A DNA stretch of 64,000 nt from Escherichia coli. Its GTDB lineage: Bacteria > Pseudomonadota > Gammaproteobacteria > Enterobacterales > Enterobacteriaceae. The stretch's first letter is position 1, and every line of letters starts with the position of its first letter. Below, in pieces: positions 59,853 through 61,576 of the stretch. A program made the translations under genes and the position numbers. Location of the stretch: NCBI RefSeq assembly GCF_030013205.1, contig NZ_CP122648.1; one strand, given 5' to 3'. The notes below the pieces were generated by a model that ran no database searches, was not told where the DNA came from, and saw only the letters and a program-made list of their open reading frames with translations.

Positions 59853-59966
59853 TATCCGCGATCGCGGATATCGCAGCGTTTATCCCGTAGAGCGGATAAG
59901 ATGTGTTTCCATATTGACTTTATCCTCACTAAAGGATAAAACTGATAATATCCCCTTGAGCGGATA
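59853..59966. promoter_or_regulatory. hipBA operator array: four TATCC-N8-GGATA palindromes (59853-59870, 59881-59898, 59921-59938, 59949-59966)
   Basis: Four exact matches to the HipB operator consensus, read directly from the sequence upstream of hipB. Confidence 0.8.
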
Positions 59967-59987
59967 AATTTGCTGTGGACGTATGAC

Positions 59988-60254
59988 ATGATGAGCTTTC
60001 AGAAGATCTATAGCCCAACGCAATTAGCGAATGCAATGAAACTGGTTCGTCAGCAAAATGGCTGGACGCAGAGCGAGCTGGCGAAAAAAATCGGCATTAA
60101 GCAGGCGACAATTTCCAATTTCGAAAACAACCCTGACAATACCACGCTGACGACATTTTTTAAGATTTTACAGTCGCTTGAACTCTCAATGACGCTATGC
60201 GACACGAAAAATGCCTCGCCAGAATCAACAGAACAGCAAGATCTGGAGTGGTAA
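59988..60254 (+). CDS. hipB: Antitoxin HipB (Xre-type HTH)
   Basis: 88 aa MMSFQKIYSPTQLANAMKLVRQQNGWTQSELAKKIG...; stop overlaps the hipA start. Confidence 0.9.
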   Translation: MMSFQKIYSPTQLANAMKLVRQQNGWTQSELAKKIGIKQATISNFENNPDNTTLTTFFKILQSLELSMTLCDTKNASPESTEQQDLEW

Positions 60255-61576
60255 TGCCTAAACTTGTCACTTGGATGAACAACCAGCGGGTAGGCGAGTT
60301 AACGAAGTTAGCCAATGGCGCGCACACCTTTAAGTATGCACCGGAGTGGTTAGCCAACCGTTATGCCAGACCGTTATCACTTTCGCTGCCATTGCAGAGG
60401 GGGAATATCACCTCTGATGCTGTATTTAACTTCTTCGATAACCTGCTACCCGATAGCCCGATTGTACGTGACCGGATCGTTAAACGTTATCATGCTAAAT
60501 CCAGACAACCGTTTGATTTATTGTCAGAAATAGGGCGAGATAGCGTTGGTGCCGTAACGTTATTACCCGAAAATGAAACCATAACGCGCCCGATAATGGC
60601 ATGGGAACAGCTCACTGAAGCCAGGCTTGAAGAAGTATTAACGGCTTATAAAGCAGATATCCCTCTGGGCATGATTAGAGAAGAAAATGACTTTCGCATC
60701 TCGGTTGCTGGCGCGCAGGAGAAGACAGCGCTGCTCAGAATAGGCAATGACTGGTGCATTCCGAAAGGAATAACGCCGACGACGCACATCATTAAATTAC
60801 CGATTGGCGAAATCAGGCAGCCCAATGCGACGCTCGATCTCAGCCAAAGCGTTGATAATGAGTATTACTGTCTGCTGCTGGCGAAAGAACTTGGGTTGAA
60901 TGTGCCGGACGCAGAAATCATTAAAGCGGGAAATGTGCGCGCGTTAGCGGTCGAACGTTTTGACAGGCGTTGGAATGCTGAGCGAACGGTTTTACTTCGC
61001 TTGCCACAGGAGGATATGTGTCAGACATTCGGTTTACCTTCATCGGTGAAATATGAATCAGATGGAGGCCCAGGCATCGCGCGGATCATGGCTTTTTTGA
61101 TGGGGTCCAGCGAGGCGCTGAAAGATCGCTATGATTTTATGAAGTTTCAGGTGTTCCAGTGGTTGATTGGCGCAACGGATGGCCATGCAAAAAACTTCTC
61201 CGTATTTATTCAGGCTGGCGGCAGTTATCGACTCACGCCATTTTACGACATCATTTCAGCATTTCCGGTATTGGGTGGCGCAGGAATACACATCAGCGAT
61301 CTCAAACTGGCAATGGGGCTTAACGCATCCAAAGGCAAAAAAACGGCAATCGATAAAATTTATCCGCGACATTTTCTGGCGACAGCAAAGGTGCTGAAAT
61401 TTCCGGAAGTGCAGATGCATGAAATCCTGAGTGACTTTGCCAGAATGATTCCGGCAGCACTGGATCATGTGAAGACTTCATTACCGACAGATTTTCCGGA
61501 GAACGTGGTGACGGCAGTTGAAACCAATGTGTTGAGGTTGCATGGACGGTTAAGCCGAGAATACGGTAGTAAGTGA
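60254..61576 (+). CDS. hipA: Toxin HipA (Ser/Thr kinase)
   Basis: 440 aa MPKLVTWMNNQRVGELTKLANGAHTFKYAPEWL...; ATG at 60254 overlaps the hipB stop by 1 nt. Confidence 0.9.
   Translation: MPKLVTWMNNQRVGELTKLANGAHTFKYAPEWLANRYARPLSLSLPLQRGNITSDAVFNFFDNLLPDSPIVRDRIVKRYHAKSRQPFDLLSEIGRDSVGAVTLLPENETITRPIMAWEQLTEARLEEVLTAYKADIPLGMIREENDFRISVAGAQEKTALLRIGNDWCIPKGITPTTHIIKLPIGEIRQPNATLDLSQSVDNEYYCLLLAKELGLNVPDAEIIKAGNVRALAVERFDRRWNAERTVLLRLPQEDMCQTFGLPSSVKYESDGGPGIARIMAFLMGSSEALKDRYDFMKFQVFQWLIGATDGHAKNFSVFIQAGGSYRLTPFYDIISAFPVLGGAGIHISDLKLAMGLNASKGKKTAIDKIYPRHFLATAKVLKFPEVQMHEILSDFARMIPAALDHVKTSLPTDFPENVVTAVETNVLRLHGRLSREYGSK

Follow-up and report, generated by a model that had tools for sequence, protein, structure and literature searches.

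Positions 59853-61576 of a 64,000-nucleotide stretch of Escherichia coli DNA (contig NZ_CP122648.1 of assembly GCF_030013205.1; the whole stretch is called the window below) almost certainly carry hipBA, the canonical type II toxin-antitoxin operon on the chromosome of this species, as an intact natural allele. The span runs exactly from the first HipB operator to the hipA stop codon. An earlier note, made from the letters of the DNA without database searches, had read the locus as the hipBA persistence module, and the annotation of an identical genome, Pfam, NCBIfam and the 98% protein identity to K-12 all agree with that reading; every coordinate given there was correct. The copy is wild-type-like and already known; many complete genomes contain it with both genes annotated. 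The features of the operon are listed below, with the operators numbered from the one nearest hipB (O1) and compared in a regulatory-region alignment of eight sequences (the window, K-12 and six other strains).

59853-59870, plus strand: HipB operator O4, the most distal from hipB; exact match TATCCGCGATCGCGGATA, identical in K-12 and the six other strains
59881-59898, plus strand: HipB operator O3; exact match TATCCCGTAGAGCGGATA, half-sites invariant in the eight strains
59921-59938, plus strand: HipB operator O2; exact match TATCCTCACTAAAGGATA, invariant in the eight strains
59949-59966, plus strand: HipB operator O1, nearest hipB; exact match TATCCCCTTGAGCGGATA, half-sites invariant and spacer polymorphic
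59988-60254, plus strand: hipB, encoding an 88-aa antitoxin and autorepressor of the Xre/Cro-type helix-turn-helix class; called from the open reading frame (ORF), Pfam HTH_3 and the NCBIfam HipB equivalog
60254-61576, plus strand: hipA, encoding a 440-aa Ser/Thr kinase toxin; called from the ORF, Pfam and 98% identity to K-12 HipA

The operators were located by an exact-pattern search of the 64-kb window with TATCCNNNNNNNNGGATA (TATCC-N8-GGATA), the operator consensus as published (PMC3920265, PMC3376134), which occurs at these four sites only. The sites form two pairs with start-to-start spacings of 28, 40, and 28 bp. In 100 dinucleotide-preserving shuffles, the mean number of sites was 0.03, and four were never reached (0/100). 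When one mismatch was allowed, just two further scattered sites were obtained (38426 and 54010), no more than chance would produce. The earlier note had described four exact palindromes of this type before hipB, and all four were recovered as exact matches. None of the operators' eight half-sites varies across the eight aligned sequences, while some spacer bases do: the O3 spacer has one polymorphism, found in O104:H4, and the O1 spacer has G at 59958 in the window versus A in K-12. Papers number the operators differently; the oligonucleotide published as O1O2 (PMC3376134) represents the two sites nearest hipB.

The hipB gene runs from an ATG at 59988 to a TAA at 60252-60254. Its product was matched by Pfam HTH_3 (4.9e-15) and by the NCBIfam HipB equivalog model (184.5 bits versus a cut-off of 79), is 100% identical to PDB 5k98_B, and shares 98% protein identity with K-12 HipB, from which it differs by A73T and N85D; residues 73-88 are retained and the C-terminal W88 is present. 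The hipA gene begins with an ATG at 60254-60256 and ends with a TGA at 61574-61576. At the junction, TAATG at 60252-60256 (GGTAATGCC), the final A of the hipB TAA also serves as the A of the hipA ATG, so that the two genes overlap by one base; the ORFs and the junction bear out the earlier placement of the hipA start on the last base of the hipB stop (ATG at 60254). The bicistronic hipB-hipA arrangement with its overlapping stop and start is seen directly in the DNA, and co-transcription is predicted. The one-base overlap also suggests that translation of hipA may be coupled to that of hipB.

HipA is a single polypeptide in which Couple_hipA (PF13657, residues 6-103, 2.1e-27) is fused to HipA_C (PF07804, residues 149-401, 7.7e-52). 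It aligns end to end with crystallised K-12 HipA (E = 1.9e-294) and shares 98% identity with K-12 HipA and with the PDB entries 2wiu, 3tpd, and 3dnt. For residue-level comparison, HipA was aligned with the proteins of six further strains, including K-12, O104:H4, the sequence type 131 (ST131)-type JJ2434, and the adherent-invasive E. coli (AIEC)-type allele WP_001125432. The autophosphorylation site S150 in the Gly-rich loop and residues K181, D309, H311, N314, and D332 are invariant in the window, K-12, and five other strains; in the crystallised chains 3dnt_A and 5k98_A, it is D309 that has been exchanged for Q. Alignment with K-12 had been put forward in the earlier note as the check on the module, with disruption of the HipA kinase motifs as the result that would speak against it, and those motifs (S150, K181, D309, H311, N314, and D332) were found intact.

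A paralogous Hip system, either the tripartite HipBST or YjjJ/HipH, was considered in place of HipBA because of a weak partial NCBIfam match to the YjjJ model (27 bits versus a cut-off of 401) and distant PDB matches to HipT and HipS. The toxin is, however, one 440-aa chain with Couple_hipA and HipA_C fused, it has 98% identity to K-12 HipA, and the locus keeps the K-12 hipBA position between lsrK and the autotransporter on one side and the ydeT-side fimbrial genes on the other. The chance that the locus is such a paralogue is negligible. HipBST and YjjJ are refuted by the alignments, the domain fusion, and the synteny.

HipA differs from the K-12 protein by ten changes (S35N, I104L, D107N, V110I, H112R, K119Q, T343A, R382K, N405H, and S424T). 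Eight of these are natural polymorphisms common to other compared strains, where they occur in mosaic combinations: the L104/N107/I110/R112 block is also found in O104:H4 and 2013C_3277, N35, A343, and K382 are also found in strain 550, and T424 is the majority state, with S424 of K-12 being the exception among the compared strains. Six of the ten differences cluster at residues 104-119.

High-persister hipA alleles are known from clinical isolates or laboratory screens, namely hipA7 (G22S/D291A), P86L, and D88N (PMC7758455, PMC12321266). On one alternative reading, hipA here would be a heritable hipA7-like allele of this kind, in which HipA-HipA dimerisation on the promoter is weakened and more persisters are formed. 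The number of differences from K-12 and the concentration of six of them in the N-terminal half (residues 104-119) are in its favour, as is the location of published high-persister changes in the N-terminal lobe as well (PMC7758455). Against it, G22, P86, D88, and D291 are all wild-type in the window, K-12, and five other strains; the earlier note had named G22S and D291A for checking, and both of these positions are thereby settled as wild-type together with P86 and D88. The L104/N107/I110/R112 block, N35, A343, K382, and T424 are also carried by unrelated natural strains, which makes them ordinary polymorphisms. In AIEC, high persistence was judged neither to require nor to follow from a natural allele of similar divergence (98.2% identity to K-12; PMC12321266). 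At the known positions G22, P86, D88, and D291, a high-persister allele of the hipA7 type is excluded, and the hipA7-like reading as a whole is considered very improbable; an ordinary natural hipBA allele is the reading kept.

The promoter region was compared with K-12 over the same eight-sequence alignment, and two promoter-like elements were placed in it.

59914-59919, plus strand: TTGACT, a -35-like hexamer just upstream of O2, conserved in the eight strains
59944-59951, plus strand: candidate -10 element between the two proximal operators, either GATAAT (59944-59949) or TAATAT (59946-59951) with TG at 59943-59944; placed from the sequence and the K-12 alignment

The distance from TTGACT to GATAAT is 24 nt, which makes this pairing non-canonical. 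TG-A-TAATAT (59943-59951) would fit an extended -10 element in this allele.

Nothing in the sequence speaks against an intact hipBA allele; the points that call for caution are given together here. A consensus promoter and terminator scan of 59700-61900 returned neither a sigma-70 site on the plus strand nor a terminator downstream of hipA; the promoter hexamers are consequently derived from the K-12 sequence only. The TATAAT of K-12 between the proximal operators is GATAAT in the window, and this makes the hexamer assignment less certain. In HipA, K119Q (60608-60610) and N405H (61466-61468) are absent from the small sample of six other strains with which it was compared.

GATAAT is present in seven of seven non-K-12 sequences (the window and the six other strains), and since all six other strains have it, K-12 is the exception among the sequences sampled. 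The G in place of T creates TG-n-TAATAT, a motif that resembles an extended -10 element. An extra T (59920) between TTGAC and O2 is found in five of the eight sequences, giving a distance between the operator pairs of 40 bp versus 39 bp in K-12 and therefore an altered helical phasing. Just downstream of the proximal operator, the window has T versus C in K-12. Upstream of the distal operator, at ~59832, 13 bp are absent from the window where K-12 has GCATCAACGCCTT. Only 21 of ~3100 matching records share the exact 72-bp regulatory haplotype found in the window. As a separate observation, the stretch upstream of TTTAAATCCTCC is highly variable among the eight aligned strains.

It is unlikely, though it can be put forward as a hypothesis, that the regulatory region of natural E. 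coli hipBA departs systematically from the K-12 reference and that GATAAT and the 1-bp spacing change, together with the lineage-specific K119Q and N405H, alter the basal level of hipBA expression, its noise, or the cooperativity of HipB, in which case persister frequency would depend on lineage and K-12 would be an atypical model. The difference between the K-12 regulatory region (TATAAT and 39-bp spacing) and that of the other strains sampled is the only mildly noteworthy point of the locus, and it might have an effect on autoregulation.

The steps by which the operon would act were taken from work on K-12 hipBA (PMC3376134, PMC3920265, PMC7758455, PMC8262856) and are extended to this allele by sequence similarity. 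HipB dimers, alone or in HipA2-HipB2, would bind the four operators that cover the promoter cooperatively, bend the DNA, and repress the operon. HipA would act as co-repressor within the HipA2-HipB2 complexes, and higher-order assembly would occlude the kinase active sites. Lon would degrade free HipB by way of the unstructured tail formed by its 16 C-terminal residues, which would release HipA. Free HipA would then phosphorylate the glutamyl-tRNA synthetase GltX at Ser239, uncharged tRNA-Glu would activate RelA, and the resulting (p)ppGpp would lead to growth arrest, dormancy, and multidrug (antibiotic) tolerance. Autophosphorylation of HipA at Ser150 would switch the kinase off. From the 98% identity to the characterised K-12 proteins, we infer that this hipBA allele is probably active, with GltX Ser239 phosphorylation, growth arrest, and HipB neutralisation and repression expected to proceed as in K-12.

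The distribution of the locus was determined in complete E. coli genomes. The 1921 bp from 59780 to 61700 recur at 100% identity in 12 complete E. coli chromosomes, the sources of which are 11 swine isolates (enterotoxigenic E. coli [ETEC], O139:H1) and one wild boar (Sus scrofa scrofa). In the annotation of the identical strain K_EC180 (NZ_CP062203.1), hipB is WP_001296726.1 and hipA is WP_063085289.1. The 1.9-kb hipBA query was recovered to 80% or more of its length in 4564 of 5426 complete genomes, mostly at 95-99% identity; ~860 of the 5426 have less than 80% of it, which means that a sizeable minority of strains lack all or part of the locus. Nine places matching the hipBA query in the complete-genome collection are on plasmids. 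No RNA family was matched when 54000-64000 was scanned against Rfam (E <= 1). A PADLOC scan gave generic helix-turn-helix matches for HipB and weak partial ones for HipA (PDC-M03A, ~29 bits), with no catalogued anti-phage system.

The earlier note had placed the module between a decayed autotransporter and a frameshifted LysR gene. Both neighbours are split into separate ORFs, and both are annotated as frameshifted in the identical genome, in line with that placement.

54985-55458, then 55482-59777 in another frame: upstream autotransporter, frameshifted, annotated as 'ECSE_1600 family autotransporter, frameshifted' in the identical genome and corresponding to the K-12 yneO pseudogene
61974-62450 and 62377-62871, minus strand: downstream LysR regulator, split into a substrate-binding C-terminal part (61974-62450) and an HTH_1-bearing N-terminal part (62377-62871), annotated as 'frameshifted' in the identical genome

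With neighbours in this state, the hipBA module might itself be non-functional and on the way to becoming a pseudogene. Such a reading gains from the frameshifts on both sides, from the further pseudogenes downstream in the identical genome, and from the ~860 of 5426 complete genomes with less than 80% of the query, since these figures make hipBA dispensable in some lineages. It is contradicted by full-length reading frames of 88 and 440 aa, by the retention of all catalytic and regulatory residues, by four operators that are all exact, and by a predominance of synonymous changes. Relative to K-12, hipA has 96.8% nucleotide identity with 27 synonymous versus 10 non-synonymous codon differences, and hipB has 97.0% nucleotide identity with 6 synonymous versus 2 non-synonymous. 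Because synonymous changes outnumber non-synonymous ones, hipBA appears not to be decaying, unlike its neighbours; the codon differences read as a signature of purifying selection on hipBA, while both neighbours are pseudogenes. Decay of the module, contradicted by intact frames, conserved residues, and synonymous excess, is accordingly rated a very small probability, and an intact hipBA operon remains the interpretation.

The autotransporter pseudogene (54985-59777) spans 4790 nt versus 5422 nt for K-12 yneO, which amounts to a within-gene difference of ~630 bp, and its frameshift lies near 55458-55482. The part at 55482-59777 carries Pertactin, autochaperone, and beta-barrel domains. Seven base pairs past the autotransporter stop, a perfect 11-bp inverted repeat (TAAGCCGCATG / CATGCGGCTTA) with a 9-nt loop was found at 59784-59814; it was not called as a terminator by the scan because no T run follows it. 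Compared with K-12, the stem of this repeat is conserved and the loop sequence differs.

On the downstream side, a small ORF at 61573-61725 has no Pfam family, is unannotated in the identical genome, and was treated as a chance ORF. Homology with K-12 stops ~105 bp past the hipA stop (window ~61680) and resumes only at the yneL remnant, so that K-12 lacks ~7.7 kb that are present here. In the identical genome, this ~7.7-kb segment contains the LysR pseudogene, a GATase1-like gene, aldo/keto reductases, a split amidohydrolase, a quinol monooxygenase, and a frameshifted carboxymuconolactone decarboxylase. GTTAAAT is found at both of its junctions, which suggests that the segment may have been deleted in K-12 between these short repeats. 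Gene decay and strain-specific content in the region, also claimed in the earlier note, are borne out by the additional split or frameshifted genes and by the ~7.7 kb absent from K-12. Divergent from the LysR pseudogene, a 103-aa ORF at 63008-63319 has no Pfam family and corresponds to the hypothetical protein WP_001221046.1 in the identical genome.

As the first persistence locus ever described, hipBA is among the best characterised toxin-antitoxin systems, and the importance of this further copy is correspondingly small; what the analysis does exclude is that this swine-ETEC-like strain carries a high-persister allele of the hipA7 type. Among known systems, the hipA7, P86L, and D88N alleles concern the same gene, and the window HipA has none of their substitutions. 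The hipBA of swine ETEC and O139:H1 strains such as K_EC180 is identical over all 1921 bp and has the same frameshifted neighbours, with no difference detected. Compared with hipBA of K-12 MG1655 (b1508/b1507), the window has the same gene order, the same lengths (88 and 440 aa), the same TAATG overlap, and four operators, three of which are base-for-base identical; identity is ~97% at the nucleotide level and 98% at the protein level, and the operon occupies the same position as in K-12, downstream of lsrK and a yneO-type autotransporter pseudogene.
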